From Parcubacteria group bacterium GW2011_GWA1_56_13 (lineage in GTDB: Bacteria > Patescibacteriota > Minisyncoccia > Phycocordibacterales > Phycocordibacteraceae): a stretch of DNA of 64,000 nt. The first letter of the stretch is position 1. Every line of letters starts with the position of its first letter. The DNA lies in the NCBI GenBank assembly GCA_001004905.1, contig LCRY01000002.1, positions 378,129-442,128 of the forward strand, read 5' to 3'. Positions 23,753 through 63,133 of the stretch are shown here, in pieces. The notes under the pieces were generated by a model. The model was not told the origin of the DNA and searched no databases. It was given only the letters and a program-made list of their open reading frames with translations. A program made the translations under genes and the position numbers.

Positions 23753-23799
23753 GGATGCGCTCTGTTATATCAGAAAAGAAGGGCCTGCGCCCGCTGTTT

Positions 23800-25233: not shown

Positions 25234-25248
25234 ATATTATATATGGGC

Positions 25249-26109: not shown

Positions 26110-27419
26110 TATCCGGTCCAGTGGGACACGAGGATTGAAACATCGCGCAGGTCGACGGCTCCGTCGCCGTTCAGATCCGCCTTAAACCCGGCACCCGAGA
26201 GCGGCCGCCGATACCAATAGAGCATCATTGAGAAATCGATAAGGTTCACGCGACCGTTGTTATTCAGGTCGCCGATTAGTTTTTGCTGTTTCAATTTGGA
26301 AATATTTTCGTCCCCGACGAGAAAGCTAACCGATGCTCCGGAACTGCTTATTTCGTTCACGAACACCGACTTTGCCTGGGCAAGGTGGCTGCCGAGGTCG
26401 AGGACGGAACTGTCGAGATTGAAGAGATAGGCGCCGACGCCGTCCGTGGGCGTTTTAAAGAAGAGGCCGGCGTCGGAATGGACGGCGATGGTGACGGCCG
26501 AACCCGGATACGACTGGCCGAAAATGGCGATGTTGTCTCCCTGCTTCACCTCGCTTTTGTCAACATCAATGGTCGGCGCGATGAATATGCCGCCGACGGT
26601 CGTCGTATTGCCGGACGTCACCGCGGTCGGGAATGAGACCATGCTCGACCGGTTCCCCGCAGTGTCTTCGCTATAGAGCGAAAATATGTAGTCACCGGTC
26701 GAAAGTCCCGAGATCATGACCTGGAAATTCGCCTTGCTGTCTGCGGTAGTGATGGCAGCTACCTGCGCATCCTTAAGCACCGTCACACTGCTTCCCGGAT
26801 ACGCCCGACCGGAAAGCACTACCGACCCTCCGCCCACCGTCGTGATGCTTCCGCCTCCGCCTCCTCCCCCGCCGCTTGAAGCGGGCGTCGCCGACACCTG
26901 CGTCGAGGTCGCGATGACGTTCCCGACCCCGTCAAGAACGCGTACGATGAAATAGTACACGGTGCCGTTCGTAAGGCCCGTTATGGTACTTGAGAGAGAG
27001 CTTGTGGGAGACGTGTACGCATACGGACCGCCGGATACCGCCGCTTCCCCCACCGTGTAGTTCGTCGGGTTCCAGCCGAGGAACCCTTGCGATGCCGTCC
27101 AGGAAAGAGCGACTTGCGCGTTGCCGACGGTTGCGCTCACGACGGGCGTGGTCGCATACGGGAACGCGAAAAAGCCAGCGGTTTCGGTAAACGACGCGGA
27201 TGAGCTGGTGCCTACCGCCGTTCCGGATATCTCGCCGTACAACTTGAAGCTCGCCGATGCGCCGTAACCGCCGGCGCTCATGACGGGATTGAGTGATCGG
27301 TAGTTGGCGGAGGTGAATTCGTCCGCGGACGCGCTTCCTGCGGCGATGAAAAGAGCGATACCGAGAACCCCGAGCCACGGAAAGAGATTGCGCCGGGTTG
27401 GGAAAGAGCCGAAACTCAT
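26109..27419 (-). CDS. secreted FN3-domain protein with C-terminal type I dockerin
   Basis: Signal peptide, poly-Gly linker, two dockerin Ca-binding repeats DLNNNGRVNLIDFSMML and DLNGDGAVDLRDVSILV at the C-terminus. Confidence 0.55.
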   Translation of the reverse strand: MSFGSFPTRRNLFPWLGVLGIALFIAAGSASADEFTSANYRSLNPVMSAGGYGASASFKLYGEISGTAVGTSSSASFTETAGFFAFPYATTPVVSATVGNAQVALSWTASQGFLGWNPTNYTVGEAAVSGGPYAYTSPTSSLSSTITGLTNGTVYYFIVRVLDGVGNVIATSTQVSATPASSGGGGGGGGSITTVGGGSVVLSGRAYPGSSVTVLKDAQVAAITTADSKANFQVMISGLSTGDYIFSLYSEDTAGNRSSMVSFPTAVTSGNTTTVGGIFIAPTIDVDKSEVKQGDNIAIFGQSYPGSAVTIAVHSDAGLFFKTPTDGVGAYLFNLDSSVLDLGSHLAQAKSVFVNEISSSGASVSFLVGDENISKLKQQKLIGDLNNNGRVNLIDFSMMLYWYRRPLSGAGFKADLNGDGAVDLRDVSILVSHWTG

Positions 27420-27423
27420 GAAG

Positions 27424-28608
27424 CTATGGTGTCGTGTTGGACGCCGTATCTATTGTCATGGACGAGATGTCGGTGGTTTCAGATGTTGTCACGGCCGGGT
27501 CCACGACCGTGACGGTGCGCGAGGCACTCGTGGTGTTTCCCGCCGCATCAGTGGCGGAGTAAGTCAGGGTATAGAGCCCTGCGACAGCAGTATCGACCGT
27601 GCCCGATACAGTTATATGTGCCGTGAGGTCGTCGTCCACGTTGTCGGCGGCGGTCGCGCCGGGGTCGGTCCAGGTATCGCCTTTGTTGAGTTGCATCGCG
27701 GCATCGCCGTTTAGGGTCACGATTGGCGGCGTGCCGTCGGGTGATGAACTCGTCGAACCATCGCCCGAGGACACGGTGGTCGTTGCGGTTTCGGGTGGCG
27801 TGGAGGATGCTGTCGTGCTCGTAGAAGGCGTCGAGGTCGCGATCGTTTCCCCTCCGGTTCCCGATGAGGTGGTCGTAGTCGCCATTTCCTCCTGCGAGGG
27901 TCCCGGTGAAGACGCCGCTGTTGACGCTTGTGTCGGTTGCCTTTGCGTTGTCGTGTCCGTTGTTTGCGTGGTCTGCGCGACCTGCGCAGGTCGTTCCGGA
28001 TCGATGATAGGAGCGACCGGTGCCCCGACGTTCGACGTGTCCCCCGCGGCCGCCGCGACGGCGGCGGTTTCCGGCACAACCGGCGTGTATCCTTCGATAG
28101 TTCCATTCCTCGCATTCAGCATCCTTCCCACGAGACCCGAGTATTCCACGGCGACGACCTTTCCCGACTCCCCTTTTCCTTGTTCCAGTTTCTGCACCCG
28201 CTTCAGGTATGTTAATTCGTCTTTCACGTTATCACTCAATTCTTTGGTCACATGGAGGCCGAGATCCTTCCCTTCGAGACTCGCCTTGCTCACGGTCAGG
28301 ATTTTTTCGACGAACAGCGTCCGCCAAACACTGTCTTCGACCGCGAGCGTGCGGTAGGAATACGCTACGTAGTAATTCTTCTCATCGTCGGTGACGGCGT
28401 TGATGCGCAGGCCGAAATCGAAATTATCCAGATTGGCGGTGATGATGACGTGATTGTCGACTGATACCACCACCTCCTTGCTTGAGTACACAGCATCGCG
28501 CACTTGCGGACTCGCGGCATACGCGGCGCCGGAGCCGAGAAAGAGGACTCCGAGCGCTACCGTGAAGGCATTGTTGTATTTGATGAACCGAAGAACACGC
28601 TCCAGCAT
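27424..28608 (-). CDS. secreted protein with Thr/Ser-rich linker and C-terminal Ig-like (DUF5011-type) domain
   Basis: Signal peptide, low-complexity TTQTTDTTTQ linker, C-terminal LTAHITVSGTVDTAVAGLYTLTYSATDAAGNTTSASRTVTV. Confidence 0.45.
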   Translation of the reverse strand: MLERVLRFIKYNNAFTVALGVLFLGSGAAYAASPQVRDAVYSSKEVVVSVDNHVIITANLDNFDFGLRINAVTDDEKNYYVAYSYRTLAVEDSVWRTLFVEKILTVSKASLEGKDLGLHVTKELSDNVKDELTYLKRVQKLEQGKGESGKVVAVEYSGLVGRMLNARNGTIEGYTPVVPETAAVAAAAGDTSNVGAPVAPIIDPERPAQVAQTTQTTDTTTQRQPTQASTAASSPGPSQEEMATTTTSSGTGGETIATSTPSTSTTASSTPPETATTTVSSGDGSTSSSPDGTPPIVTLNGDAAMQLNKGDTWTDPGATAADNVDDDLTAHITVSGTVDTAVAGLYTLTYSATDAAGNTTSASRTVTVVDPAVTTSETTDISSMTIDTASNTTP

Positions 28609-28653
28609 GAGTCCAGTATAGCGCGAAGCGCGCCCGCAAACGGCTTCTGTGCA

Positions 28654-31377
28654 CTAGCCGTTCAAATTGATTCCGTTGACCCTCTTCACCGAGTCGCTAG
28701 CGAGGCCGTTCAGTGTTTTCACCGAGGTTTCGTCGAGGCCGTTAAACGTGCTGATGTCGGAAGTCGGTATCGAAGGGCTTACCGACGCGGATTCTGAACT
28801 CGAAGGCGAAAATGAGGCGGAAGGGGACAAGCTTGGGGAGAGCGACGCGGAGGGCGAGCTTGACGCACTCGGGGATGGCGATGGAGAAATGGATGAGCTT
28901 GGCGAGAGAGAGGCCGATGGCGACTGGCTCGGGGATTCGGAAGCGGAGGGAGAGACAGACGGGCTCGGGGAGGCCGATGGCGACTGGCTCGGGGATTCAG
29001 AGGCAGAGGGAGAGAGCGAAGCGGAGGGAGACAGTGATGGCGAAACCGATGATGAGGGAGAGAGCGAGGCGGAAGGCGAAAGAGAGGGCGAAGCGGAACT
29101 CGAGGGAGAGATGGATGCGCTCGGAGATATCGAGGGACTTTCAGATGCGGAAGGCGAAAGCGAGGCGGATGGGCTAAGCGACGGCGAAACTGACGAGCTC
29201 GGTGAAAGCGACGCGCTCGGGGAAAGCGACGGACTTTCTGACGCCGAAGGCGAAAGTGAGGGAGAGACAGACGGGCTCGGGGAGGCCGAGGGCGACTGGC
29301 TCGGGGATTCAGAACTTGAAGGCGAGAGCGAAGCTGAGGGGGAAAGGCTCGGAGATTCGGAACTTGAGGGCGATAACGAAGCGGAGGGAGAGAGCGAAGG
29401 AGAAGCCGAGGCGGAGGGAGAGATTGAGGCGGAGGGAGAGATTGAGGAGGATTCAGAGGCAGAGGGAGAGAGAGACGCCGACGGCGAGAGTGAAGGACTT
29501 TCAGACGTGGATGGCGAGAGCGAGGCGGAGGGAGAGATTGAGGGCGATTCGGATGCCGAAGGCGACTGGCTCGGGGATTCAGAAGCGGAGGGAGAGAGCG
29601 ATGCCGATGGTGAGAGCGACGGGGAGATGGATGAGCTTGGCGAGAGTGAAGCCGAGGGAGAGAACGATGGCGACTCAGACGCTGAGGGCGAGAGTGAAGC
29701 TGAGGGCGAGAGCGACGGAGAAACGGAAGAACTCGGCGAGAGCGAGGCGCTGGGAGAGAGGGACGGCGATTCAGAAGTTGAGGGTGAGAGCGAGGCGGAA
29801 GGTGAGAATGACGGGGACTCGGATGCGGATGGAGAGAGTGAGGCGGATGGGCTGAGCGATGGCGATTCAGAAGTTGAGGGTGAGAGCGAGGCTGACGGAG
29901 ATTGACTCGGCGATTCGGAGGCGGATGGGCTCAGGGATGCAGACGGAGAGAGCGAGGGGGAAACAGAGGAACTTGGCGAGAGCGAGGATGACGGAGAAAG
30001 CGAGGGCGATTCGGATGCCGAGGGTGAAAGAGATGCAGAGGGAGAGAGCGAGGGTGATTCGGAGGCGGATGGGCTCAACGATGCCGAGGGTGACAGAGAG
30101 GGAGAAGCCGATGAGCTTGGCGAGAGCGAGGCGCTCGGAGATAACGATGGTGATTCAGAAGCCGAGGGCGACAACGACGCAGACGGGCTTAAGGACGGTG
30201 AAACCGACGAACTTGGCGAGAGCGAGGCTGACGGAGATTGACTCGGCGATTCGGAGGCGGATGGGCTCAGGGATGCAGACGGAGAGAGCGAAGGTGATTC
30301 GGAAGCGGATGGGCTCAACGATGCCGAGGGTGACAGAGAGGGAGAAGCCGATGAGCTTGGTGAGAGCGAGGATGAAGGAGAGAGGGATGGAGATATCGAA
30401 GAGGAAGGCGACAATGAAGCTGATGGGGAGAAAGACGGACTTTCAGAAGTCGATGGGGATAATGATGCTGAGGGAGAGAGCGAAGCGGATGGGGAAAGGG
30501 AGGGAGAAACGGAAGAGCTTTGCGCCGCTTGCGATGGCGAAACGGAAGCCGAAGGCGAAAGCGATGGGGATTCCGATGTCGAGGGGCTAAGCGAAGCTGA
30601 TGGGGAGAAGGACGGACTTTCAGAAGTCGATGGGGATAATGATGCTGAGGGAGAGAGTGAGGGTGATTCGGATGTAGACGGGCTAAGCGATGCTGAGGGA
30701 GAGAGTGAGGGTGATTCGGATGTAGACGGGCTAAGCGATGCAGACGGAGAGAGCGAGGGTGATTCGGATGACGAGGGAGAGAGAGACGGTGACTCCGATG
30801 GAGACTCTGAGGGCGATTGAGAGGAAGACGGCGAGAGGCTCGGTGATTCGGAAGGTGATTCGGAAGGTGATTCGGAAGGGCTTACCGAGGAAGACGGCGT
30901 CGGCGGCGTGAAGTCAACCGTGCACGTAACGAAATCGATGGAAAAAGTGACCGCGTCGGTATCGTTCCCCCGGATGCTCCGCAACCGGGCCCTGACGTTA
31001 TTGGCGGTTCTCAGGTCAGCGAGCGTTACGCCCGAGGTGACTTGATGTTCCAGGAGCGTGTCTACTGTCTTCTCCGTCGCGTCGCTCTGTTCCGAACCAA
31101 CTGCCGAGGTGCCGATGAACACCTGTATCGCCTGCGTGGCGATCGACATGTTGGTACTGACCTTGTATTGGAGGGAAACCGTAACCGAATTGATCGTTGA
31201 GCTGTCGGGGATGAGCGCGGTGTCAAACGCGGGGAATCCGAAATATGCCGAGATTTCGGCGTTTTTGCCGGGTGCGGCGGTCGCGTACTGAGTATTGTCG
31301 CCATCGTAGGCCAGCTGGGGGTTCGTGTATCCCGTCGTGATGGCTGTATGGGCATTGGCGTTCTGTGTGACAGCCAT
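28654..31377 (-). CDS. 907-aa Ser/Pro tandem-repeat protein (globular N-terminal ~165 aa, ~700 aa of SPSxSxSPS repeats, NGL-repeat C-terminus)
   Basis: Single uninterrupted minus-strand ORF through 2.7 kb. Plus-strand frames are broken by stops. Co-directional with the flanking genes. Confidence 0.6.
28800..30900. repeat. degenerate ~18/48-bp tandem coding repeats (Ser/Pro-rich region)
   Basis: Repeated ggcgagagcgaggcggagggagag... units encoding ([16 protein letters not shown])n on the minus strand. Confidence 0.8.
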
Positions 31378-31380
31378 AAC

Positions 31381-31836
31381 CTATCGCATGATTTTATTCC
31401 ACTCCTCTTCCGTCCAATTATTCAAAAAGTCCCTCTCCCCCTTCACCGAACCGCGGTAATTGATGCTGTGATGTTGCTTCTTCCCCACGCGCTTGCACTC
31501 GCTCCACGCTTTTTTCACATCGAGAACATACTCCCACGCACTGATGGCATGAACCAGGTCAAAGCTGCCGTCTGCGAACGGCAGCGTTTCCACCGAGGCC
31601 TTCAGTACGTATCCTTTGGCGCAGGTATGTTCGAGCGCATAATCGGATACTTCTATGCCCCACGCGTCAAAGCCGCGCTCGCGTAATAGTTTGACCAGAT
31701 AGCCGCATCCGGTGCCGATGTCCAAAATTTTGCATACGCCATATTTTTTCTCCAGCCAGTCGGCGACCGCTTCATAGAACGCATGCCTATGGATAGTTCC
31801 CCAGAGGTCTTCGTAGTATTTCCGATCAAAAATCAT
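31381..31836 (-). CDS. class I SAM-dependent methyltransferase
   Basis: GAGGGG SD before ATG 31836 (MIFDRKYYEDLWG). ILDIGTGCGYLV motif I. The stop lies 3 nt before the start of the repeat protein. Confidence 0.55.
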   Translation of the reverse strand: MIFDRKYYEDLWGTIHRHAFYEAVADWLEKKYGVCKILDIGTGCGYLVKLLRERGFDAWGIEVSDYALEHTCAKGYVLKASVETLPFADGSFDLVHAISAWEYVLDVKKAWSECKRVGKKQHHSINYRGSVKGERDFLNNWTEEEWNKIMR

Positions 31837-31970
31837 AGGCCCCTCATACGTAGATAGTACTCCATACTCCCCCTCTTCTGCTTTCCCAAATTTGGCGCCA
31901 CGACTTGCGGCGACAGGTAGCACGGTATCTCTTTTTAAGAGCCGGTCTCGGTGTGGAGCGCCACTGTCCT

Positions 31971-33722
31971 TTACGTCGCCCCCTGAAGGTCGAGTAGTTT
32001 GCGCACGTTGTCCCATCCGGGAATAGTGTCGACAGTCGCTTCCTTCCAGAAGGCCGGCTTGCGGCGGAACTGGTCCTGGCTCCAGCGCGCGCGGGTCAGG
32101 TTTTTGCCGTGCTTGATGTCAATCGAGGGCGCGGCGGACTGATACGTCTCGAAGCCGTACCAGTGTTCCCATTTGATGCGGCCGTGGGTCATCGGCTCGA
32201 AGCCAATGCGGTAAGAGAAGCCCTCCTTCTCGACAAGCGCCACCCGCTCCCGGAAATGATTTAGGAGTGCTCGCCGACAGGCGACGAGGCCCGACAAGGG
32301 GCTCACGTTGTACTGGATGGCGAATCCGTCCGAGGCGCGCAGGAACCAGTAGTTGCTGTCGTAGTAAAAGACGTCCTCGCGCGGCGGCACGAAGTCGAAG
32401 TGCGAAGGGTGGTAGAGCACGTCGTGTTCGGCGAGGAAGACGACGTCGGTGCCGAGCGTCTCGAGGCCGACGAGTATCTGCTTGAACAGCGTGATGTAGC
32501 TTCGCTTGAGCGGGAGCACGACATTCCTGCCGAACGCGGTCGGCTTGAGCGAGACGGAAACGAGCGGCAACCGTTTGCGCCGCGCGATTTTTTCGAGCTG
32601 GCGCTGGCAAACGCGCTGAATCTTTTCGTCGAGCTCGTTGTCAGTGTAGTAAAGAATGCCCATGCTTGGCACGCGCTTCGGGTCCCGGGGTTCCGAGGGA
32701 GCCGGCACGGCTTCGGTCGGCGCCTGCGGCTCCGGGAGCGGCTCGACATCTTCGGCCCGCGCCGCGCGCTCGTTCTGGAGCGGCCACGCCTTGAGCTTTG
32801 CGAACGCCTCCTCGCTCCATCCCGGTACTGGCCAGAATTTCTCGAGAAGCCACGAGAGTGGGCGCACCTGCTTCTCCCACTTATTGTCGAAAAAGAGCTC
32901 GCGCGCCGTCTTCTTCGCGGCCTGCACCTTGCTCCCCGGGTTCTCGTAAGGGAAGCCGAAGTCGCCGCCCTGTGTCCTGAACATATGCGCATACCACGTC
33001 TGGTGGTTCACAAGTACCCTGCCCCCCGAGAGCCACGTCTTGCAGGCCACCTCGATGCCCTGTGAGCCCCACGAGCCGAACGTCTCGTCGCTTATGCCGA
33101 GTTCCCAGTATTTGTCGCGGGTCAGCATGAAGCAGGAACCTTGAATGGACATCGACTCCGTGAGGCCGGTCGCAAGCGCCTTCTTATATTCAGGGCGGCG
33201 CCTGAAATCCCTGAAGTACTGAAAGTGTGGTTCCTGGTCGAAGCAGTAGGAGTCGCTCTGCGGATTCGTCTTCGGTATCCAGACCACGTCCTTCTCGGCC
33301 GGCTTGCCGCACTCCTTACAGGGCCCGGAGGGGCTCTGGTACCGGACGTGCCCGTCCGGGCACACCCAGTTGAACGCGTGGAGATTGCGCATCACTGGCA
33401 CCATCGTCACGTCGTCGCCGACTTCTTTGAACGCCGCGAGCATCTTGATGTCGAATCCTTGGTCGAACGCGCAGTGCGCATCGCACTTCATCACGTACTT
33501 CGCCTCCGAAAGCCGCGCCGCCTGGTTGGTCGCCGCGCGCTGGCCCTTCGCCTCAGGGTTGCGGATGATCTTGAGCCGCGGGTCTTCCGGCAGGTCCGCC
33601 GCGTAGCCGTCGAGGACCGCGATAACCTCCGTGTCCCCTTCCCGGTGGCTCAAAATGTCCTCGATGGTCCGTGTGAGGAATTCTTCGTTGCGAGCGGGAA
33701 TGAGTATCGAGAGGTCTGCCAT
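31971..33722 (-). CDS. family 2 glycosyltransferase fused to a second C-terminal domain
   Basis: SILIPARNEE...VIAVLDG GT-A N-terminus (DxD region CDAHC). ~300-aa extra C-terminal domain. Confidence 0.6.
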   Translation of the reverse strand: MADLSILIPARNEEFLTRTIEDILSHREGDTEVIAVLDGYAADLPEDPRLKIIRNPEAKGQRAATNQAARLSEAKYVMKCDAHCAFDQGFDIKMLAAFKEVGDDVTMVPVMRNLHAFNWVCPDGHVRYQSPSGPCKECGKPAEKDVVWIPKTNPQSDSYCFDQEPHFQYFRDFRRRPEYKKALATGLTESMSIQGSCFMLTRDKYWELGISDETFGSWGSQGIEVACKTWLSGGRVLVNHQTWYAHMFRTQGGDFGFPYENPGSKVQAAKKTARELFFDNKWEKQVRPLSWLLEKFWPVPGWSEEAFAKLKAWPLQNERAARAEDVEPLPEPQAPTEAVPAPSEPRDPKRVPSMGILYYTDNELDEKIQRVCQRQLEKIARRKRLPLVSVSLKPTAFGRNVVLPLKRSYITLFKQILVGLETLGTDVVFLAEHDVLYHPSHFDFVPPREDVFYYDSNYWFLRASDGFAIQYNVSPLSGLVACRRALLNHFRERVALVEKEGFSYRIGFEPMTHGRIKWEHWYGFETYQSAAPSIDIKHGKNLTRARWSQDQFRRKPAFWKEATVDTIPGWDNVRKLLDLQGAT

Positions 33723-33741
33723 GCTTGGCGCTAGTATCTCA

Positions 33742-34446
33742 CTATTTCTTCATAAACGAAACTTGTTTTTCTTGGCTTAAATTATGGAATAAAGCGCCTG
33801 GATTGAGCTCTTTTCGGTCGTGGAACCGCCCGATGGGGAACAGGTAGATATCCGGACCGAGGACGGGCGCTGTTCCCGCGAACGCGCGGTTCCACTTGCC
33901 GTTGAAATAGCAATCGTCCCCTTTTTTGCTCGCCGGATGGTAGCCGAGCGTGCAGGTCTCGGGCGCGTAGCCCCCCAGCTGATCGAATATCTCTTTTTTC
34001 ATGACGAAGGTGTTGCCGTGCACGCTCGCGTCCATCCTCTCCCCGCTGTAACCGAACTCCGTAAGCGCTTTCCTGTCCTGGGTGAGTGTCCCGTCAGACA
34101 AGAGGAGCGCTATCTGTCGGCGGAATATCATTTTGTTCCCCGTGAAGGCGCGCGTGGCCTCAAGCGCTTCGCGCGAGATGATGTGGTCAAGGTCGGTCAT
34201 GAAAAGATACTCTCCGCGCGCCTGCGAAGCGCCTAGATTCCGGCCGAGCCCCTGCGTCCAGGCCAGGTTATTGTGCGTCTGGAGAATGCGCATGTTTTTC
34301 ATCTCGCCCTGAAGCGGCGGGTCGCTCCCGTCATCGACAAAAATAAATTCGACGTCGTTCGGCGGGTTCATTTTCTTGAAGTATGCGAGCTGCCGCGCGA
34401 ACGCCCCGTGCGAGTTGTATATCGAGATGACGATCGAAACCTTCAT
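33742..34446 (-). CDS. family 2 glycosyltransferase
   Basis: MKVSIVISIYNS...FIFVDDGSD...MTDLDH GT-A motifs. Confidence 0.65.
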   Translation of the reverse strand: MKVSIVISIYNSHGAFARQLAYFKKMNPPNDVEFIFVDDGSDPPLQGEMKNMRILQTHNNLAWTQGLGRNLGASQARGEYLFMTDLDHIISREALEATRAFTGNKMIFRRQIALLLSDGTLTQDRKALTEFGYSGERMDASVHGNTFVMKKEIFDQLGGYAPETCTLGYHPASKKGDDCYFNGKWNRAFAGTAPVLGPDIYLFPIGRFHDRKELNPGALFHNLSQEKQVSFMKK

Positions 34447-34458
34447 ATTGTGCTTGCT

Positions 34459-35112
34459 CTAATAATTTAACCCTACCCTGACGTCGCCGATATGCATAAC
34501 CCTCGGCGCATCGGTGCGCTTGCCCCAGTATGCGCATTTGGCGTTCGCATCTTTGAAGAGCATGCGTCCATACTGGCGTTCCGAGTACGGGACATCGGGC
34601 CAAGGATAATCGTAGACAAGAGATTTGTTATACACGCAGGGATTGCAGGAAAAATTATTCCGGTGTTCCACCCAATAGTGAACGCCGTCGGTTTTGTCTT
34701 CATATCGCTCTGGATGCGAAGCTATTATTCCTCCCTTTTTCCGCTCCCGCGAACCGATTGGCTGCCGGAGAAGCACTATTTCTTTGAGATGGGGGTTATT
34801 CCCCATGACCTTGATCATGTCAGCGACAGCCACGTCTTCCATAAAAAGAAAATCGTCTTCCAGGTGGAAAACCCACTCATTGGCATCCTCTTTGAGCTTC
34901 TGCCAGGCGGAGATCATGGCTTTTGCGAATCCGACCCGATCGGTGGCCGCGATCTCGTACTTGAATCGCTCAAGCCACTTTCGGTACGTATTATCCCCCG
35001 AATCATCATGGATCAATACCCGAGAAAAGGAGGCGTGAAGTTTCCCGAGCGTGGAGAGAGTCCGCTCGAGATATTCCCCGCGTCCATTGGTCATGATGAG
35101 AAGCGTCACCAT
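34459..35112 (-). CDS. hypothetical protein (possible nucleotide-sugar transferase-like), ~50% GC
   Basis: 217-aa ORF in the operon, HLEDDFLF acidic motif. No clear family. Confidence 0.4.
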   Translation of the reverse strand: MVTLLIMTNGRGEYLERTLSTLGKLHASFSRVLIHDDSGDNTYRKWLERFKYEIAATDRVGFAKAMISAWQKLKEDANEWVFHLEDDFLFMEDVAVADMIKVMGNNPHLKEIVLLRQPIGSRERKKGGIIASHPERYEDKTDGVHYWVEHRNNFSCNPCVYNKSLVYDYPWPDVPYSERQYGRMLFKDANAKCAYWGKRTDAPRVMHIGDVRVGLNY

Positions 35113-35612
35113 AAGGTGTCAAGAGGAGTCGTGTTACTGAGGACGGTCGTCCATGGTATATAGCGGTCGAAATCCTTTCGATACTTGAATTCGGGAAATG
35201 CGATTTGGTACATATTTTTCCGAACGACGTTTGAATCGTGGATGACAATGTAGTCGGCGCTATTCTTAAGATGAACTGCGGTTTTGCCTCTCGTGTGCCC
35301 GCCATGGTCAATAAGGATGATGCTGTAATGCCCTGTATTTGGTATTGAGAGATAGTCATCAATAAGATGAACTGCGTGGTTTTCTGACCTATATTCCTCG
35401 GCTAACTTGATGAAGTTCTTGTCGCTCTCGTATGTGACAAGGGAACGTTTTGTCTCGGCGCATAACCAGTGAAGAAGGGGCGTGCTGTAGATCCCGGATC
35501 CCACTTCCATGATCGGTCCCGTAGTCATGGCGGCCAGTTTCAGCAACACAGGCATGTGGGTCGACCATCCTTGTTCGATATTTATGGAGAGTGATTTATC
35601 CGAATGGCGCAT
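35106..35612 (-). CDS. putative class I SAM-dependent methyltransferase (TylF/MycF-like fold), lower GC
   Basis: IMEVGSGIYSTPLL glycine-rich motif. 7-nt overlap with the upstream gene. Confidence 0.4.
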   Translation of the reverse strand: MRHSDKSLSINIEQGWSTHMPVLLKLAAMTTGPIMEVGSGIYSTPLLHWLCAETKRSLVTYESDKNFIKLAEEYRSENHAVHLIDDYLSIPNTGHYSIILIDHGGHTRGKTAVHLKNSADYIVIHDSNVVRKNMYQIAFPEFKYRKDFDRYIPWTTVLSNTTPLDTLW

Positions 35613-35615
35613 AAT

Positions 35616-36302
35616 TTAATAGCCGTGCCTCGTAAACAGTTCGATGAGGTGCGCGGGGAGGAGCGGCTTCACGTCCTTATAGAGCTCTTTCATGCGGGGA
35701 TGGAAATGAAATACCTTGACGGGCTTTTCCGCTTTGGCAAACATCAGCTCGTTATGCCGCATGCGGCCTAAGTTATACGTATTGTTCAGTTTTATATACC
35801 GGTCATTTATATTGTCCACGTTCCTCGATGTTAAACGATACAAGGCTATTTCTTCGTTGACGCGTTTGTCGTTCATGGTCCGCCGAATGAGTTCGAACAG
35901 GTCTTTCGCCCGAGGCGAGAAAAAGAAACTGCCGGTATTCCACATTTCATTGAATCCGTAATCGGTAAAAGCGGCATCCTTATCCCCCAATACGTCCGCC
36001 GGAAATGCACTCACTTGGTAGGCATCGAAATCATGGAACCAACACACACCATCAAGTGCGCCAGTATCCAATAGATGACAAATGACATTTATCTTGCTAG
36101 CCCGTTTTCGATGTGTACAAAATAATTCATCGGGTACCACGATTGCATTAACCCCTTCATAAGAATATGGAAAATTGGTTACCAGGAGGATATCTTCCCT
36201 GTTCCATATCCGTAAAGAATTATCAATTTGCACTTTAACCAGGCCCGCATAATCTTTGGTAAATTCTTTTGACGGATGTATATATGCCATCAAGTTTTTC
36301 AT
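35616..36302 (-). CDS. hypothetical protein, ~44% GC
   Basis: ATG 36302 overlaps the upstream stop (ATGA). No recognisable motif. Confidence 0.4.
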   Translation of the reverse strand: MKNLMAYIHPSKEFTKDYAGLVKVQIDNSLRIWNREDILLVTNFPYSYEGVNAIVVPDELFCTHRKRASKINVICHLLDTGALDGVCWFHDFDAYQVSAFPADVLGDKDAAFTDYGFNEMWNTGSFFFSPRAKDLFELIRRTMNDKRVNEEIALYRLTSRNVDNINDRYIKLNNTYNLGRMRHNELMFAKAEKPVKVFHFHPRMKELYKDVKPLLPAHLIELFTRHGY

Positions 36303-36967
36303 AGCGAAAGCGAGGCTCGCAGCAAGGTCAAGTCGCCCCAAAATGGAAGCGACTCGCGCGGCGGATGCCGGCGCGAGTGGGAAGAGTAGCGGCTCACGTT
36401 GTTCAGCGTTTTAAAGGTGATAACGGGCTCATCGGACGTCCACACGAATTTTGGGTCCGTCCCGAGATGATACGCCCTGTTACTCGGCTTGTCCTCCTCG
36501 GTATACCAGCGCATTTCCTTCCCGAAGACCTGTCCGATGTATAAGCGCCAAAAGTCCTTGCGAATCACTTGCGCGCCGTCCGAGTATCGCTTGAAGAAAG
36601 CCAAATCCGGCTCTGACGCCGTTTTCGGTCGGATATAGGCAAGCCATACGTTGCCGTATCGATAATAATCCGCGCCGTCGGGCCGGAATGCGAAATAGGC
36701 GGGCGGGTACAGCACATCGGCTTCGGCTGTGATGACGTAGTCGGTTTTGACCGCATCGAGCCCGATTTGGATTTGGCGAAATTCGTTCCCGTAGCATGGG
36801 TGATGCCGCCCGACGCAAATGTTCTCTCCAAAGCCGGGGGCCGGCTCCTGTGTCACGGAGACGAGCGGCAGGTTGCCCTTGTGTTTGAGCAGATTCTCGC
36901 GGATTTTCGCCTCGAATGCGGGTTCTTCTGCATTCGCAGAGTAGTAGAGGACGGTAAGATTGTTCAT
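36299..36967 (-). CDS. hypothetical protein
   Basis: 222-aa ORF in the co-directional operon. Confidence 0.4.
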   Translation of the reverse strand: MNNLTVLYYSANAEEPAFEAKIRENLLKHKGNLPLVSVTQEPAPGFGENICVGRHHPCYGNEFRQIQIGLDAVKTDYVITAEADVLYPPAYFAFRPDGADYYRYGNVWLAYIRPKTASEPDLAFFKRYSDGAQVIRKDFWRLYIGQVFGKEMRWYTEEDKPSNRAYHLGTDPKFVWTSDEPVITFKTLNNVSRYSSHSRRHPPRESLPFWGDLTLLRASLSL

Positions 36968-36968
36968 A

Positions 36969-37571
36969 TCAAGTCTTCACGTACATCCAGGAGGGACACT
37001 TGTCCTTCCAGGTAAAGAGCGGTGTGATGCCGTAGGCCGAACACCAGCCGTTCACCGCCTCGATGACACCGAAGTTGAGCTTTGAATTGACGAAATAATC
37101 GTGGCCGATAACAAGCCCTCCCTTGCGCACCTTCCTGCTCCACGCCGCGATGTCGGCGACTACATGCTCGTAGGAGTGGTTCGCGTCGATAAATACCCAG
37201 TCGAGCGACTCGTCGGGAAATTCTTTTACCGCATCCAGAGACCAGGCCTTCTTGAGCGTGACATTCTTGAATCGCGCGAGCTTTTTCTGCGCATGCTGGT
37301 AGGCATCGTTTTCGAGGTCGTTTTTGTCGTAATCGCGGTAATTTTCGTACGAGGTCCACGCGTCAATGCCGATAATCTCCACGTTTGGAGCCCGTGAGGC
37401 GAGCCGCTCGGTAAATCTGCCTCGATATACACCGAGCTCCACCCCCTTTTTGAATCCGAGGTCGTTTAAGAGGCGGCCCATGTCGTGCCAGCGGCTCGCC
37501 GGAATCCTCACAGGCGACGACGCGTTCGGATTGAGCCCGTATCGCCGCATGACGAAGTTGAGGGTGTCCAT
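36969..37571 (-). CDS. class I SAM-dependent methyltransferase (Methyltransf_24-like)
   Basis: VELGVYRGRFTERL glycine-rich SAM motif, FIDANHSYEHV. Confidence 0.5.
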   Translation of the reverse strand: MDTLNFVMRRYGLNPNASSPVRIPASRWHDMGRLLNDLGFKKGVELGVYRGRFTERLASRAPNVEIIGIDAWTSYENYRDYDKNDLENDAYQHAQKKLARFKNVTLKKAWSLDAVKEFPDESLDWVFIDANHSYEHVVADIAAWSRKVRKGGLVIGHDYFVNSKLNFGVIEAVNGWCSAYGITPLFTWKDKCPSWMYVKT

Positions 37572-37572
37572 A

Positions 37573-38430
37573 TCACCCCCAGATGCGCTTCCTCCAGTCC
37601 GTGGGCCAGGATGGGAGCGGCCAGAACTGGTCTATCATGTTCTCGAACGTTTTCCGGTCTTCGTATACCCAATAATTATACGAGAATTTATTGCAGGCCC
37701 GCATGGACTCTCGGCTCATGAAATACATGCGACCGTATTTTGGCCCCTTATGCAGGTGCGCATACCAGGTGTTCTTGTTCGACATTGTTTTGCCGCCCGC
37801 GCGCTTCGTCTTGTAGACGATCTCCTCGCCCTCCTGTCCCCACCCCGAGTAACCTTCTATTTGCATAAGACCGACGTGTTTGAACCACTCTTTCGTCATA
37901 AACCACGCACTTCCCTGGATATGCATCGTCTCGTCGATCGGAATGTGGGAACGCTCGCGAGTGCGAGCGTCCCATTTGAACCCGTGAAGGCCCTTTGGGT
38001 CGAACTTCTCGGGATACATCGTGTATTCGTAGTCGATGGGCGGCCGGTCATCCACCTGCGTCTGTAGGCACCAGTGCTCGGCATCGAGGCGGTGTCGGCG
38101 CGGCACCTGTACCCAATTCGGCTGATGGTCCTTCGCAAGCTGCATGTCAAAGCCCGGTGCGACCATGCAGTGCGCATCAAGTGCCATGATGTATTGTCCA
38201 TTCGCACGTTCGGCCATCGTATTTATTCCGTGCCTCTTATGCGTTTCGCCGCCGCCCAAGGGAATGCGCAGGTACGTAACGCGCGAATCGTGTACAAGCT
38301 CTTCGGTGGGCGGTTCGTACCCATCCAGTATGGGAAACACCTCGATTTCGCCCGTGGCGTTTTTCAGCACATCCTCGATCGTCTGTTTTAAGAAACGTTC
38401 GTTCCTGCTCGGTATGGCAATGGATAACAT
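37573..38430 (-). CDS. family 2 glycosyltransferase (paralog of the N-terminal half of 31971..33722)
   Basis: The ORF track start 38721 gives an Arg-rich N-terminus that is unlikely. ATG 38430 gives MLSIAIPSRNERFLKQTIEDVL, parallel to MADLSILIPARNEEFLTRTIEDIL. Confidence 0.55.
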   Translation of the reverse strand: MLSIAIPSRNERFLKQTIEDVLKNATGEIEVFPILDGYEPPTEELVHDSRVTYLRIPLGGGETHKRHGINTMAERANGQYIMALDAHCMVAPGFDMQLAKDHQPNWVQVPRRHRLDAEHWCLQTQVDDRPPIDYEYTMYPEKFDPKGLHGFKWDARTRERSHIPIDETMHIQGSAWFMTKEWFKHVGLMQIEGYSGWGQEGEEIVYKTKRAGGKTMSNKNTWYAHLHKGPKYGRMYFMSRESMRACNKFSYNYWVYEDRKTFENMIDQFWPLPSWPTDWRKRIWG

Positions 38431-38468
38431 GATTCCCGCTTTGCGTAACGAGGATTTTACCTTGCCGT

Positions 38469-39080
38469 CTAGACGTGCGTCAAATAGAGAATGGAGGGAG
38501 CGAAGTACATTGCGTCGGCCGAGAGCGCCCAGCCGATGGGCTGGATAACCTCGTCCGTTCCCGAGGGCTGGACCTGGGAGAGGGCTCCCGTGGCGGTTGA
38601 TACGTAAATGAGTCCGGAGTCCCCGGGTCCGATCGTCCAGTTCCAGGCATCGGCGCGGAGCACCCCGTGGAGGAGGATGCGCTTCGCGCCGGCCCCGGCG
38701 TCTACCGCAAGCGCGACGCACGGCGAGGTTGCGTTCGAAGTTGCGCTCGCCGTACTCAAGTTGCCATTGGAAGCCATGTAGAGCGGCGCGCCGATGCCTT
38801 GATCGTTCGTATCCACAGTCGCCGTAATGATGAGGCCGGAGGCGGAATTGTCGGCCGACGGCGGGTTCATGAGCTTGATGCCCGCAACGCTGTTGATGGG
38901 AAGCTCGCCCATGTCGAGGCGATACCGCGATATCTTGATGGTCTGCGTGCCCACCTTAAGGTCTCCGCATCCGAGGCAGGTAAACAGCGACGTGGGAACT
39001 GTTTTCTTTTTGTCGGACCCCAAAAGCGGTATCCAGTGATGCGTACCGCATTCCTCCTGTTCTTTTTTTCTTTTCTTCAT
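38469..39080 (-). CDS. hypothetical protein with N-terminal Cys4 zinc-ribbon-like motif and beta-rich C-terminal domain
   Basis: CGTHHW...CLGCG. No SD. Function unknown. Confidence 0.4.
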   Translation of the reverse strand: MKKRKKEQEECGTHHWIPLLGSDKKKTVPTSLFTCLGCGDLKVGTQTIKISRYRLDMGELPINSVAGIKLMNPPSADNSASGLIITATVDTNDQGIGAPLYMASNGNLSTASATSNATSPCVALAVDAGAGAKRILLHGVLRADAWNWTIGPGDSGLIYVSTATGALSQVQPSGTDEVIQPIGWALSADAMYFAPSILYLTHV

Positions 39081-39099
39081 TTGAACTGCGCTGTATGTT

Positions 39100-39315
39100 T
39101 CAGCTTAAATAATCTATCTGAAGCACCTCTTCCCCACCAGCATCATGGACAGAAAGAAATTGCTCGGTCTCGGAAACGTTGAACGTCGAAAGACGACGTC
39201 CCGGCGCCGCATCCTGCGGCGGTTTCGAAAGCAACGGGCCGAACATTTTCCCCATCACGAATGTCCCGCTGCCAATGAGCACTATTTTTAAGAACTGTCT
39301 TCTGCTGGTATCCAC
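39100..39315 (-). CDS. small (71 aa) protein with twin-arginine signal peptide
   Basis: SRRQFLKIVLIGSGTFVMG Tat motif. Mature part only ~40 aa. Confidence 0.4.
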   Translation of the reverse strand: MDTSRRQFLKIVLIGSGTFVMGKMFGPLLSKPPQDAAPGRRLSTFNVSETEQFLSVHDAGGEEVLQIDYLS

Positions 39316-39322
39316 ACGTTTT

Positions 39323-39517
39323 CTATTTTCGGCCGGATTTTTTCAGTTCTTTCTGTGCCTTTTGTATCTCCCGCTCCATTTCGGTCTTCCCCTTCTGGAA
39401 TTCTCCCGTGAATCGACCGAGGCCGCGTGCTATTTCCGATATCTTCTCTCCGCCGAAAAAAAACACAACGACGACCACGAGAATGATCGCTATCTCCGGG
39501 AATCCGAGTCCAAACAT
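39323..39517 (-). CDS. tatA: twin-arginine translocase subunit TatA/E
   Basis: MFGLGFPEIAIILVVVVVFFFGGEKISEIARGLG amphipathic TatA signature. The ORF track extends it with a TTG start. Confidence 0.65.
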   Translation of the reverse strand: MFGLGFPEIAIILVVVVVFFFGGEKISEIARGLGRFTGEFQKGKTEMEREIQKAQKELKKSGRK

Positions 39518-39528
39518 ACTAAGATAAG

Positions 39529-39630
39529 TTATTTGATATTGTCCTGCTTCTTCCTGTTTTTCCAAAAGAAAAACAGGGCCACGATGACGATTACAATGAC
39601 CGCAATTTCTGGGAATCCGAGTCCAAACAT
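39529..39630 (-). pseudogene. truncated tandem duplicate of the tatA 5' end (33-codon ORF MFGLGFPEIAVIVIVIVALFFFW...)
   Basis: ~45 bp near-identical to the tatA start (tccgagtccaaacat...), out of frame with tatA. Confidence 0.4.
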
Positions 39631-39730
39631 AAGAGGGAGCGTTTACTTTTTATTAATCCGACCATATCGAAAGTATAGCAGGTGTTGTAGTGCGCGCGCG
39701 GCCTACGGTGGATATCGTTTTTGATGCGCC

Positions 39731-40504
39731 TCAGCTTCTTGCGGCACGGCGAGCAAGGAAGGTGCCTGTGATGTATAAGAGCACGAGCGGTACGAACAAA
39801 AGGACCATGGTGATGCCTGTCTGATCCGGAGTTATGACTGCAGAAAAGACGAGCAAGGATACGAGCGCGTGACGCCGCTTTCTCCTCCAAAAGTCTGGTG
39901 CCACAACGCCGAGAAAACTCAGGAGCGCCATGAAGATGGGGAGCAGGAAGATGACGCCGGTCGCGAGCATGATGCCGACGATCCACGCCATAAACGCATC
40001 GAGCGAAAAGAGCGGCGTGACACCGAGCGCTGTCGTGAACGGATACATGAGCTCAAAGGTTAAGGGTATGAGATAGACATACGCGAAGACGCAGCCGGCG
40101 ATGAATAAGGCGGAGGAGAGGACGAGCGCCTGGGACACTCCTTTTCGTTCGTGCGCGAACAAGGCCGGCGAAAGGTACTGCATGAAGCGGTACAGAAAAT
40201 ACGGGGAAACCGTGATGAACGCGAGTACGAGCGCTATCTCAACCTGAGTGATGAAGCCGCTCAAGGGAGTCATCACGATGAGCGTGACCTCTGACGGCAC
40301 GAAATCGCTCTGCATCATCTTGAAAAAGTGTACCGCAAAGGAATCTCCGGTGAAAACAGGGATCGGGATATTTTTTCCGAACACTGTCACGGTGCTCGGG
40401 CCGACCAGAAAATAAAAAAGAGAGGAGGCGACGAACGCGAAAACCCAATAGACAATGCTTTGGGCGAACAATTTCAATTCCCCGAGGATGGTCACGGAAT
40501 GCAT
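39731..40504 (-). CDS. tatC: twin-arginine translocase subunit TatC
   Basis: 6-TM protein with conserved TatC blocks (PLSGFITQVEIALVLAF..., FLLPIFMALLSFLGVV). Confidence 0.8.
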   Translation of the reverse strand: MHSVTILGELKLFAQSIVYWVFAFVASSLFYFLVGPSTVTVFGKNIPIPVFTGDSFAVHFFKMMQSDFVPSEVTLIVMTPLSGFITQVEIALVLAFITVSPYFLYRFMQYLSPALFAHERKGVSQALVLSSALFIAGCVFAYVYLIPLTFELMYPFTTALGVTPLFSLDAFMAWIVGIMLATGVIFLLPIFMALLSFLGVVAPDFWRRKRRHALVSLLVFSAVITPDQTGITMVLLFVPLVLLYITGTFLARRAARS

Positions 40505-40506
40505 CG

Positions 40507-41496
40507 CTACTCCCCTTCGTCGAACTCAAAGATGGGATTGTCCGTCGTGTCGTACATGACCGTCGTTGACGCGTCGATTTGCTTGAACGTGAATGAATTG
40601 CCGAAGATGACGCCATTCTCGACGACGACATTGCCTTTTGTCCCCGGCTCCGTGACCCCGCAGCCGCCGCCAGAACAGACCCAGAGATTCTCGTTGTTCT
40701 GCCGTATATTCCCGCCCGTTGAAGATATTTCGAGGTCGCCGGTACCGGGGACGGCATACAGTTCACCGTATACATCACTTGCCTGGCTCACTCTGAATTG
40801 AGCATAGCTGTTTGCATCAAACACATTGAATTTTCTAGTCGCCGTTGAAGTTCCGATACCGGTATTGCCGGAATTGTCGATAACGAACAGATTCGTGCCG
40901 GCCGAGTTTTGGACCTGGAAGAGATTTGCCACCTGGCTCGCAATACCTCGAAGTGAAAGTGGCGTTGCCGCCGTCGATGTTGCCTCGATGGAAACCATGG
41001 AGCCCGAAATCGGCGTCGTCGTCCCGAAAGAGGATTGGCCAGTGCCGCTCACGGCTCCTGACAAGAGTGAAAAAAGAGAGGATGTTATCTGTTGGCGGGG
41101 TGAGAGCGTTTCCCAACTGGCATTATCGGAAGAAACCTCTACCTGCAAATAGAGAGAATTGCCGTTTGAGAAGTCGAGGGAGAGGGCGTCGGGATATCCG
41201 TTATCCGTGTCGCCGATATTGACGGTAAATACTCCCTGGCGCACCGTCGCGGAGACCGCGGTCGGCGCGGCGGCCGGCCACGTACGTGAACCAGTGGCTA
41301 TGTTCGATGTGGTCCAAACGGAAAATTTGAAATAGTACGTCGTTCCGGTTGATGAGCCGAGTAGGTCGCCGCTTGCATTTGTCAGTCGGCCCTGATAGCT
41401 GATGATTTGCGGAAGGGTTTGCGCGGCATGAGACGCAGAAAGTGGGAGTGCAACGAAGACCCCACCACAAAAAAGAACCATCAAGAGTTTTTTCAT
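40507..41496 (-). CDS. secreted Ser/Thr/Gly-rich protein (fiber-like), function unknown
   Basis: ATG 41496 gives a classical signal peptide MKKLLMVLFCGGVFVALPLSASHA. The ORF track start 41967 adds an unlikely 157-aa basic extension. Confidence 0.5.
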   Translation of the reverse strand: MKKLLMVLFCGGVFVALPLSASHAAQTLPQIISYQGRLTNASGDLLGSSTGTTYYFKFSVWTTSNIATGSRTWPAAAPTAVSATVRQGVFTVNIGDTDNGYPDALSLDFSNGNSLYLQVEVSSDNASWETLSPRQQITSSLFSLLSGAVSGTGQSSFGTTTPISGSMVSIEATSTAATPLSLRGIASQVANLFQVQNSAGTNLFVIDNSGNTGIGTSTATRKFNVFDANSYAQFRVSQASDVYGELYAVPGTGDLEISSTGGNIRQNNENLWVCSGGGCGVTEPGTKGNVVVENGVIFGNSFTFKQIDASTTVMYDTTDNPIFEFDEGE

Positions 41497-41542
41497 CGTA
41501 GTGCTGCCGCGCAAGCGGCCTATGTACAGTGTAGCGCACTTT

Positions 41543-63117: not shown

Positions 63118-63133
63118 CTAAATTAATCTTCTT

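Follow-up and report, generated by a model that had tools for sequence, protein, structure and literature searches.

What do nine adjoining genes for glycosyltransferases (GTs) and methyltransferases (MTs) make, and are they native to the genome in which they lie? The question is raised by a locus of Parcubacteria group bacterium GW2011_GWA1_56_13, a member of the Patescibacteria, in which the genes, here called g1 to g9, occupy positions 31381-38430 of the window, that is, of the whole analysed stretch of 64,000 nucleotides (contig LCRY01000002.1, positions 378,129 to 442,128). Just beyond g1 begins the gene of SP907, a protein composed largely of Ser/Pro repeats. The cassette is read here, with a probability of about 0.6, as a set of enzymes for cytoplasmic O-glycosylation of the Ser/Pro-repeat protein and for methylation of the sugars. 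A first-pass annotation of this DNA had described nine co-directional genes of a surface-glycan or protein-glycosylation pathway, and all nine are indeed open reading frames (ORFs) of the minus strand. In order of transcription they are:

37573-38430, minus strand: g9, the first-transcribed gene of the nine, a GT2 glycosyltransferase by Pfam
36969-37571, minus strand: g8, a class I S-adenosylmethionine (SAM) methyltransferase, Methyltransf_24
36299-36967, minus strand: g7, a stand-alone copy of the C-terminal domain of g2, predicted divergent GT-A with an invariant ExD
35616-36302, minus strand: g6, a possible nucleotide-diphospho-sugar transferase, with the lowest GC of the island
35106-35612, minus strand: g5, a probable SAM methyltransferase
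34459-35112, minus strand: g4, a probable GT-A glycosyltransferase
33742-34446, minus strand: g3, a GT2 glycosyltransferase
31971-33722, minus strand: g2, a two-domain protein, with a g9-like DxH GT-A domain carrying a Cys-rich insert at the N terminus and a g7-like predicted GT-A domain at the C terminus
31381-32016, minus strand: g1, a class I SAM methyltransferase, Methyltransf_11, whose start is ambiguous (32016 or 31836)

The DxH glycosyltransferases and the other cassette enzymes

The three genes annotated as GT2 (g2, g3 and g9) all match Pfam above threshold. G9 scores 41.8 bits (1.4e-10) and g2 55.2 bits with PF00535, for which the cut-off is 23.3, and g9 also gives a weak match to PF02709. 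The suspicion that the last glycosyltransferase is a paralog of the first proved right, the N-terminal half of g2 and g9 being 30% identical over 307 amino acids (E 8e-35). The extra C-terminal domain of g2, also recognized at first pass, is a paralog of g7 (35% identity over 110 amino acids, E 3e-14). With halves that are paralogs of g9 and g7, g2 resembles two fused genes, one of the g9 type and one of the g7 type.

The structural relatives of the DxH domain are found among the polypeptide GalNAc-transferases. When g2 alone was compared with the PDB, all 16 of its 16 matches were enzymes of this kind. A profile of the family formed by g9 and the N-terminal domain of g2 (g2-N), with 32 members, has them as its top 12 PDB matches (E 1e-13), over the whole catalytic domain. 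Positions 3-250 of the profile align to 32-289 of 1xhb, so that the DAHC of the family falls on the DAHC of GalNAc-T1 and the downstream His is also aligned; on ordinary GT2 structures the match is confined to the first 80-100 residues. D85, H87, C88, E203 and H225 (g9 numbering), and with them the DxH motif, are invariant in the 32 family sequences. The Gal/GalNAc-T segment aligns with E203 and the GG kept, but PF02709 reaches E < 0.01 in only 4 of the 32 members, g9 itself scoring 17.7 bits, below the cut-off of 23.

Neither g9 nor g2 gave a match to a ricin-type lectin domain, and no hydrophobic segment that could be a type II anchor was seen in them. G9 ends at 285 amino acids, and g2 carries its second GT-A domain where the GT27 enzymes have the lectin domain. 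Since the family lacks both the lectin domain and the anchor, and since only 4 of 32 members score with PF02709, it is named GT27-like, not GT27. Its nearest solved relatives are the eukaryotic polypeptide GalNAc-transferases that initiate mucin O-glycosylation, a likeness that is distant. The two groups have in common the catalytic domain, the DxH(C) motif and the His that follows it downstream, and the presumed acceptor, a Ser/Pro tandem repeat, resembles a mucin domain; the proteins described here differ in being cytoplasmic, in being encoded by bacteria or phages and in their low identity to GT27.

More than 5000 homologs of g2 were found. The best 120 are 45-72% identical and almost all full-length, and the named organisms among these 120 are Paceibacterota, Microgenomates or Collierbacteria. 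In some genomes a Methyltransf_24 domain is fused onto the g2 homolog, and there are multi-domain GT-GT(-MT) fusions of 770-830 amino acids; the fusions with Methyltransf_24 tie methylation to glycosyl transfer. The N-terminal domain of g2 also contains a Cys-rich insert (W-V-C-P-x-G-H ... C-x-x-C-G-K-P) at residues about 115-140 (window 33300-33380), which is absent from the g9-type paralogs and looks like a small zinc ribbon.

The two class I methyltransferases that had been annotated are confirmed: g8 matches PF13578 (4.5e-20, 72.9 bits) and has 40 paralogs or orthologs across related loci, and g1 matches PF08241 (7.6e-16, 59 bits). G3 matches PF10111 (2.7e-10) and PF00535 (7e-10, 39.5 bits, cut-off 23.3) and has seven orthologs with 49-66% identity. 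The four genes left at first pass as unknowns or possible sugar-modifying proteins can now be given provisional names. G4 is probably a GT-A glycosyltransferase, to judge from its match to phrog_3047, a phage galactosyl transferase family (2e-20), and from a PF00535 score of 22.3 bits (1.4e-4), just under the cut-off of 23.3. G6 is possibly a GT-A or nucleotide-diphospho-sugar transferase, with a weak, sub-threshold match to PF03407 (0.0037). G5 is probably a SAM methyltransferase: E36-x-G38-x-G40 is invariant in 17 homologs, three of which give weak, sub-threshold matches to Methyltransf_24 or Methyltransf_3. G7 and the C-terminal domain of g2 (g2-C) share an invariant ExD and are predicted to have a divergent GT-A fold, as suggested by structure prediction of g2-C. 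Sequence and profile searches of the PDB with g4, g5, g6, g7/g2-C and the N-terminal domain of SP907 gave nothing usable, the matches of g6 being spurious WD40 designs.

In total the cassette encodes up to seven GT-A domains and three methyltransferases. No membrane segment or signal peptide was found in any cassette enzyme, in SP907 or in g10, a protein encoded upstream of g9, and family scans of the 17-kb array that surrounds the cassette found no flippase, polymerase, ABC exporter or priming phosphoglycosyltransferase. A role in DNA modification, which the name 'DNA methyltransferase' of phrog_2675 would imply, was considered and provisionally set aside, because the enzymes are of GT-A type and are encoded beside what appear to be Ser-rich structural proteins.

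The serine-rich neighbor and the surrounding array

The proposed acceptor, SP907, is encoded at 28654-31377 on the minus strand (907 codons) and starts 3 nucleotides past g1. It consists of an N-terminal globular domain of 166 amino acids, a Ser/Pro repeat of about 700 amino acids and a C-terminal triple [I/V]K.[V/I]NG motif. The repeat contains 43% Ser and 16% Pro, has Ser, next to Pro, at every second residue and has a period of 16 amino acids; its autocorrelation at period 2 is 0.5-0.78, compared to 0.06 at odd lags. Such a composition is rare in the window, where Ser exceeds 25% in just 2 of the 85 ORFs of at least 200 amino acids. The N-terminal domain has 25 database homologs, and the C-terminal motif is common to the counterparts of SP907 in four related loci (L011, L020, L025 and L026). 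A dockerin-like nature of the IKxVNG motif was tried and rejected, the calcium-binding Asp pattern being absent. No hydrophobic N terminus or signal peptide, extended signal peptide or LPXTG anchor was seen in SP907.

In another public assembly of the same organism (L001, 12343-14826) the gene is exactly 80 codons shorter, in frame, with a shared prefix of 379 amino acids and a shared suffix of 491. The difference is either a length polymorphism in the population or the collapse of a repeat during assembly. The repeat uses all six Ser codons, and this, together with the exact 80-codon length variant, supports the minus-strand frame. Public records call Glu/Asp/Gly-rich ORFs on the opposite strand over the repeat (L001 12432-14729, L002 12432-14969, L095 15380-16036). 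Calls on the wrong strand imply that the Ser/Pro class of proteins is mostly missing from protein databases.

The junctions within the cassette are tight, as had been claimed, with short spacers of 1-19 nucleotides or overlaps: 1 nucleotide at g9-g8 and at g8-g7, 3 at g6-g5, 12 at g4-g3 and 19 at g3-g2, and an overlap of 7 nucleotides at g5-g4. The several ATGA overlaps of the first-pass annotation reduce to a single true one, of 4 nucleotides, at g7-g6. The g2-g1 junction is a 46-nucleotide overlap or a 134-nucleotide spacer, according to which start of g1 is taken; public records give this protein 211 or 151 amino acids. The annotated start of g9 at 38430 is right, since its homologs all open with MLSI..IPSRNE, although the ORF itself extends to 38721. 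A scan for promoters and terminators gave the number expected from shuffled sequence and left the ends of the operon undefined.

The limits 31381-38430 proved too narrow. The nine genes form the variable central part of a larger, conserved co-directional array at 23800-40504, the other members of which are:

39731-40504, minus strand: TatC (PF00902, 9e-42), with six hydrophobic segments
39323-39517, minus strand: TatA (PF02416, 1e-10)
39100-39315, minus strand: RR-ORF, a protein of 71 amino acids with a twin-arginine motif SRRQFLK (SRRQFLKIVLIGSGTFVMG) and a hydrophobic stretch
38469-39080, minus strand: g10, with a zinc ribbon (C11, H14, C35, C38), a strongly conserved linker and a beta domain
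28654-31377, minus strand: SP907, the Ser/Pro-repeat protein described above
27424-28608, minus strand: Ig394, a membrane-anchored or secreted surface protein, Ig-like (PF16403, 1.8e-26), with an N-terminal hydrophobic segment
26109-27419, minus strand: Doc436, a secreted Ig/FN3 protein with a C-terminal dockerin (PF00404, 4e-8; PF17936) and a signal peptide-like N terminus
23800-26109, minus strand: p286 and Coh477, paralogous secreted proteins, placed by hydrophobic segments and synteny

The upstream part of the array links the cassette to the twin-arginine (Tat) genes. TatC lies upstream of g10 in 8 related loci, and in related loci TatA directly precedes RR-ORF and g10. RR-ORF has no Pfam match and is uncalled in L001-L003 and annotated in an Andersenbacteria locus (L095). 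Its orthologs occupy the same gap between TatA and g10 in all 9 of the loci that cover the gap; in L095, RR-ORF is next to TatC, and TatA is 12 nucleotides from g10. The Tat motif S/T-R-R-x-F-L-K followed by a hydrophobic stretch is present in RR-ORF and 10 orthologs, which also have a conserved C terminus, LSVxDxxGEExxQID (LSVYDxSGEEIFQID-like), and has no match in SP907, g10 or any cassette enzyme. G10 belongs to a family of 256 proteins with no Pfam domain, the named matches of which are almost all Patescibacteria. In the fold test its beta domain matched phage capsid-decoration, or cement, proteins, and its C-terminal domain is 50-60% identical to the C termini of collagen-like 'tail fiber' proteins in phage contigs. 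G10 is not encoded with capsid genes, as capsid, portal and terminase had no match among the window ORFs scanned.

On the downstream side, Ig394 directly follows the Ser/Pro protein in all 5 loci that have both, and Doc436 is syntenic in the four loci (L011, L020, L025, L026) that share the C-terminal motif of SP907. Coh477 has a C-terminal hydrophobic segment and a cohesin-like match (PF00963, 7e-5) that is just sub-threshold. Unlike the cassette enzymes, g10 and SP907, the flanking proteins Ig394, Doc436, p286 and Coh477 carry transmembrane or signal segments, as does p331, a secreted protein without a Pfam match that is encoded at 40507-41502 on the minus strand. Relatives of p331 with 55-60% identity stand directly upstream of TatC in L013, L019 and L026, and p331 may belong to the same system.

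The identical locus is present in four public assemblies, one of them named Candidatus Kaiserbacteria. Synteny was examined by comparing the window proteins with 26 loci from species-representative genomes, and the locus turned out to be a conserved chromosomal feature of Patescibacteria with the cassette as its variable core. The recurring order is p331, TatC, TatA, g10, a variable set of g9-, g8-, g7-, g5- and g3-type genes, g2, and then Ig394, Doc436 and p286/Coh477. Across several families of Patescibacteria the flanking genes are the same, TatC and TatA upstream and the Ig, dockerin and cohesin proteins downstream, with identities of 40-77%. Of the 22 related loci that have downstream sequence, about 15 contain near g2 an ORF on the same strand that is rich in Ser (25-53%). 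In the Andersenbacteria locus the array is rearranged, TatA-g10-GTs-Ser-rich ORF converging on RR-ORF-TatC, and all parts are still together. That they stay together despite the changed order and orientation points to a functional link between the Tat genes and the rest of the locus. The same locus encodes, between the glycosyltransferases and the Ser-rich ORF (L095 13553-14140), a protein of 195 amino acids with an N-terminal GFMRTGTSAM reminiscent of sulfotransferases; the glycan or the protein might also be sulfated in Andersenbacteria.

Phage relatives, composition and gene flux

Relatives of g2, mostly 41-64% identical, are encoded at 55 phage loci in IMG/VR; a tblastn search with g2 of 50,697 GenBank phage records gave no match. 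Most of the 55 loci contain the same cassette, and 39 of them have a Ser-rich ORF. The neighboring proteins were scanned in five phage loci, of which four gave hallmark genes of tailed phages. The cassette lies beside or inside the structural module: after the tape measure protein and Dit in L041, after the portal and major head protein in L032, after the terminase (TerL) and portal in L070, and near the terminase in L066. The Ser-rich proteins of phages and cells have types of N-terminal domain in common, and the IKxVNG tail is limited to the chromosomal ones. In a rough neighbor-joining tree the cellular clades of g2 nest among phage sequences. These homologous cassettes and Ser-rich proteins in tailed phages imply that the module moves between these bacteria and phages. 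The zinc-ribbon protein g10 was not found within 10 kb of g2 in any of the 55 phage loci. One phage contig (L086, 6981-10438) has a GT-methyltransferase fusion gene directly before a collagen-like fiber that ends in a g10-type domain; this may be a second kind of glycosylated fiber.

A complete prophage in the window was sought and rejected. PHROGs and Pfam scans, which covered the operon, its flanks and selected other ORFs and left out about a dozen ORFs of the window, gave only cellular functions (LepA, MurJ, RNR, HtpX, FtsH, a class I aminoacyl-tRNA synthetase and TatAC).

The first-pass annotation had taken a fall in GC over 34459-36967 as a sign of horizontally acquired modules. Relative to a baseline of 60 window ORFs (mean 0.557, standard deviation 0.048), the dip is present and modest in g4 (0.512, z about -0.9), g5 (0.471, z -1.8) and g6 (0.44-0.45, z -2.2), but g7, with 0.564, is not low. 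The profile is not uniform, yet by Karlin codon bias g6 is the sole outlier of the island (z 2.1, third in the window), z being below 1 for g4 and g5. Genes outside the island are equally low in GC or lower: 8167-8904 (0.370), 62017-63117 (0.448) and 57748-58506 (0.478). At the other extreme, GC at third codon positions (GC3) in g2 is 0.83, the window maximum. G6 is the AT-richest gene of its own locus in two relatives too and has the lowest GC at second codon positions of the island, and its dip is therefore partly a matter of amino acid composition. No integrase, tRNA or flanking repeats bounding the island were found, and the repeat search gave no att-like flanks; the sole long repeat found is the DAHC-coding stretch common to g2 and g9. 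The nearest tRNA is a tRNA-Ser at 23662-23753, past the surface-protein genes.

GC by itself is no proof of foreign origin, and the step from mosaic GC to horizontal acquisition is not supported: the island stands out little in GC and codon usage, to a degree that is ordinary for the window, no marks of mobility were found, and the locus is conserved. Gene flux in the cassette is nevertheless real, as judged from the comparative evidence. The number and kind of GT and MT paralogs vary from genome to genome in every genome compared, g4 and g6 are patchily distributed (2-3 of the 26 related loci, g4 in 2), and cellular and phage sequences are interleaved in the g2 tree. To this extent the idea of gene import stands, on grounds other than GC.

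It has to be asked whether g4-g6 in particular are recently acquired foreign modules within an otherwise native pathway. Their GC of 0.44-0.51, the codon bias of g6 and the narrow distribution of g4 and g6 speak for it, although g4 and g5 are unremarkable in codon usage, g7 is not low, several housekeeping-type genes of the window are equally low in GC, and in g6 amino acid composition contributes. Also in its favor is a comparison with a Zambryskibacteria locus (L011): its ortholog of g6, with 39% GC, has 73% nucleotide and 75% protein identity to g6, and g4 has 69% nucleotide identity to the same locus, compared to 61-64% for g2, g3 and g7. Moreover, the GC3 of g4 and g6 (0.51-0.62) is intermediate between the 0.25-0.31 of the Zambryskibacteria genome and the host norm of about 0.70-0.83. 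Mobility genes and repeats were, however, not found around the island, and on balance recent import of g4-g6 is considered unlikely, while keeping some weight.

Three other features of the window were observed in the course of this work. The ORF at 8167-8904 on the minus strand, which has no Pfam match, departs furthest of all in composition from the rest of the window (GC 0.370, GC3 0.374, codon bias z 3.5). It overlaps a class I aminoacyl-tRNA synthetase gene at the end of the latter. A tRNA-Ile with the anticodon TAT is encoded at 46613-46689 on the plus strand; this tRNA is uncommon in bacteria, where AUA is usually read by a lysidine-modified CAU tRNA. Finally, 62017-63708 contains a low-GC pair of genes, for a deoxyhypusine-synthase-like protein (PF01916, 1.6e-31) and an S-adenosylmethionine decarboxylase (PF02675), a polyamine/hypusine-type pairing that is unusual for a bacterium.

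Proposed glycosylation of SP907 and its alternatives

In the proposed mechanism the soluble GT-A enzymes (g9, g2-N, g2-C, g7, g3 and probably g4 and g6) would build short glycans on the serines of SP907 in the cytoplasm, and O-methylation of the sugars would fall to the SAM methyltransferases g1, g8 and probably g5. What results would be a fiber resembling mucins or serine-rich-repeat proteins, in which a glycosylated stalk bears a variable head at the N terminus. Its display on the surface, possibly via Tat with the small twin-arginine protein as an escort, is a guess. The gene content, the paralogies, the fold and profile assignments, the lack of membrane and signal segments, the synteny and the recurrence of Ser-rich ORFs beside the cassette are observed; we infer serine as the acceptor, the pairing of the enzymes with SP907, the sugars as methyl targets and the fate of the product. 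Glycosylation of a protein in the cytoplasm is favored because the enzymes and SP907 lack transmembrane and signal segments and because the array has no flippase, polymerase, exporter or priming transferase. SP907 is favored as the acceptor because it starts 3 nucleotides past g1 and because Ser-rich ORFs recur beside the cassette in cells and phages. The first-ranking matches of the DxH family, to polypeptide GalNAc-transferases, and the place of the cassette in the structural modules of phages also speak for this reading. Of the two options left open at first pass, a surface glycan or protein glycosylation, the protein option, tied to the neighboring proteins, is preferable to a free glycan of the surface. 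The methylated sugars proposed at the same time belong to what appears to be the best reading, given the Pfam matches of g1 and g8 and the fusion of Methyltransf_24 to g2 homologs.

The closest known parallels are proteins glycosylated before they leave the cytoplasm. The serine-rich repeat proteins (SRRPs) GspB and Fap1 of Gram-positive bacteria receive their sugars from soluble glycosyltransferases in the cytoplasm, ahead of export (PMC5578698, PMC7948813). As in SRRP loci, a giant protein combines a domain of ligand type at the N terminus with Ser-x dipeptide repeats by the hundred, soluble glycosyltransferases are encoded beside it, and the cassette varies by strain. The locus differs in lacking GtfA/GtfB (GT-B), SecA2/SecY2/Asp, the long signal peptide and LPXTG; no array gene matched the GT-B, SecA or SecY families, whereas TatA and TatC are present. 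It also has other GT-A families, prominent methyltransferases, Tat as the linked translocon and a module shared with phages. In the staphylococcal SDR proteins a stalk of Ser dipeptide repeats is modified by the adjacent SdgA/SdgB (PMC3794999). Their repeats, however, are Ser-Asp, not Ser-Pro/Ala/Leu, and they carry a signal peptide and are anchored through LPXTG. Among viruses, the A064R protein of chlorovirus PBCV-1 is an enzyme composed of two glycosyltransferases and a methyltransferase, and the fibrils of giant viruses are also comparable. Glycosylation of phage virions, including the capsid and tail of mycobacteriophages, is a further parallel (for phage virions see PMC12582341, with its reference 80, and PMC11256854). 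The likeness is that soluble GT-A enzymes encoded by the virus, with or without methyltransferases, modify structural proteins in the cytoplasm, and that the GT-GT(-MT) fusions resemble those of g2 homologs. Here, in contrast, the acceptor would be a dedicated Ser/Pro-repeat protein, not a major capsid or tail-tube protein, and the copy in the window is chromosomal, has cellular flanks and is linked to Tat and to cohesin/dockerin proteins. The enzymes SdgA and SdgB belong to GT-B family 4.

Several observations weigh against glycosylation of SP907. About a third of the related loci have no Ser-rich ORF in the sequence at hand, although many of these are cut at contig ends because repeats break assemblies. 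The sole link between the enzymes and SP907 is adjacency. The likeness to GT27 is distant, with PF02709 reached by only 4 of 32 members, and the family could equally be GT2, with mostly lipid-linked or polysaccharide acceptors. SP907 has no recognizable export signal, which leaves its surface display unexplained. The assignments of g4, g5 and g6 rest on sub-threshold matches, and the fold of g10 suggests the context of a virion, which the window does not contain.

Two other explanations of the whole locus were weighed. The cassette could synthesize a glycopolymer or glycolipid of the cell envelope, in the form of a methylated oligosaccharide borne by a lipid or by a polymer of the wall, with SP907 as a mere neighbor. 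G2, g3 and g9 belong to Pfam Glycos_transf_2, whose characterized bacterial members are mostly makers of polysaccharides; there are weak NCBIfam similarities to the exopolysaccharide (EPS) and PNAG synthases, and near four related loci (L014, L015, L017, L029) there appear to be genes that modify sugar nucleotides, with N termini that, judged by eye, look like those of aminotransferases or epimerases. Against such a pathway, the priming transferase, flippase, polymerase and ABC exporter are not in the array, and the enzymes have no membrane segment. Moreover, phages build no wall polymers, yet in tailed phages the cassette adjoins Ser-rich proteins within the structural modules, and the nearest solved relatives of the DxH family are protein O-glycosyltransferases. 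Envelope synthesis is therefore rated improbable.

The phage relatives bear on the second alternative, in which the biochemistry is unchanged but the role differs: a phage-derived module that serves virions, as the remnant of a head- or tail-fiber glycosylation system or as a helper set. It would account for the decoration-protein fold of g10 and for the 50-60% identity of its C-terminal domain to phage collagen-like fibers, for the 55 phage loci with g2 relatives, 39 of them with Ser-rich ORFs, among which the cellular g2 sequences nest, and for the lack of a signal peptide in SP907 and its relatives, as in virion proteins. Yet the window ORFs that were scanned (about a dozen having been left out) gave no match to a terminase, portal, capsid, tail or integrase, flanking repeats were likewise not found, and the same cellular flanks in several families, at 40-77% identity, mark the locus as old and stable. 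The zinc-ribbon g10, furthermore, was not found within 10 kb of g2 in the 55 phage loci, and the IKxVNG motif is found in chromosomal proteins only. A virion role is thus accorded little probability. Glycosylation of SP907 in the cytoplasm remains the preferred reading. It may be extended, doubtfully, to an undescribed pathway of Patescibacteria in which fibers modified in the cytoplasm by relatives of mucin enzymes are exported by Tat and docked on a scaffold of cohesin, dockerin and Ig proteins, phages carrying the same on their virions. The signal-bearing escort would then be the small twin-arginine protein, possibly with a trimeric, phage-decoration-like g10, and the cassettes and fibers of phages would mimic or compete with the surface coat of the host. 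A literature search found no description of such a system in Patescibacteria or their phages, nor of bacterial relatives of GT27.

Much of the diversity of bacteria lies in the Patescibacteria, which live attached to other cells and whose surface molecules are barely known. The locus is a specific candidate for a major glycoprotein system, of the surface or of virions, across several families of the group, with named substrates and enzymes that are now open to expression and assay. It also points to bacterial and phage relatives of the glycosyltransferases that initiate mucin synthesis, and suggests an exchange of glycosylation cassettes between these bacteria and the phages that infect them.

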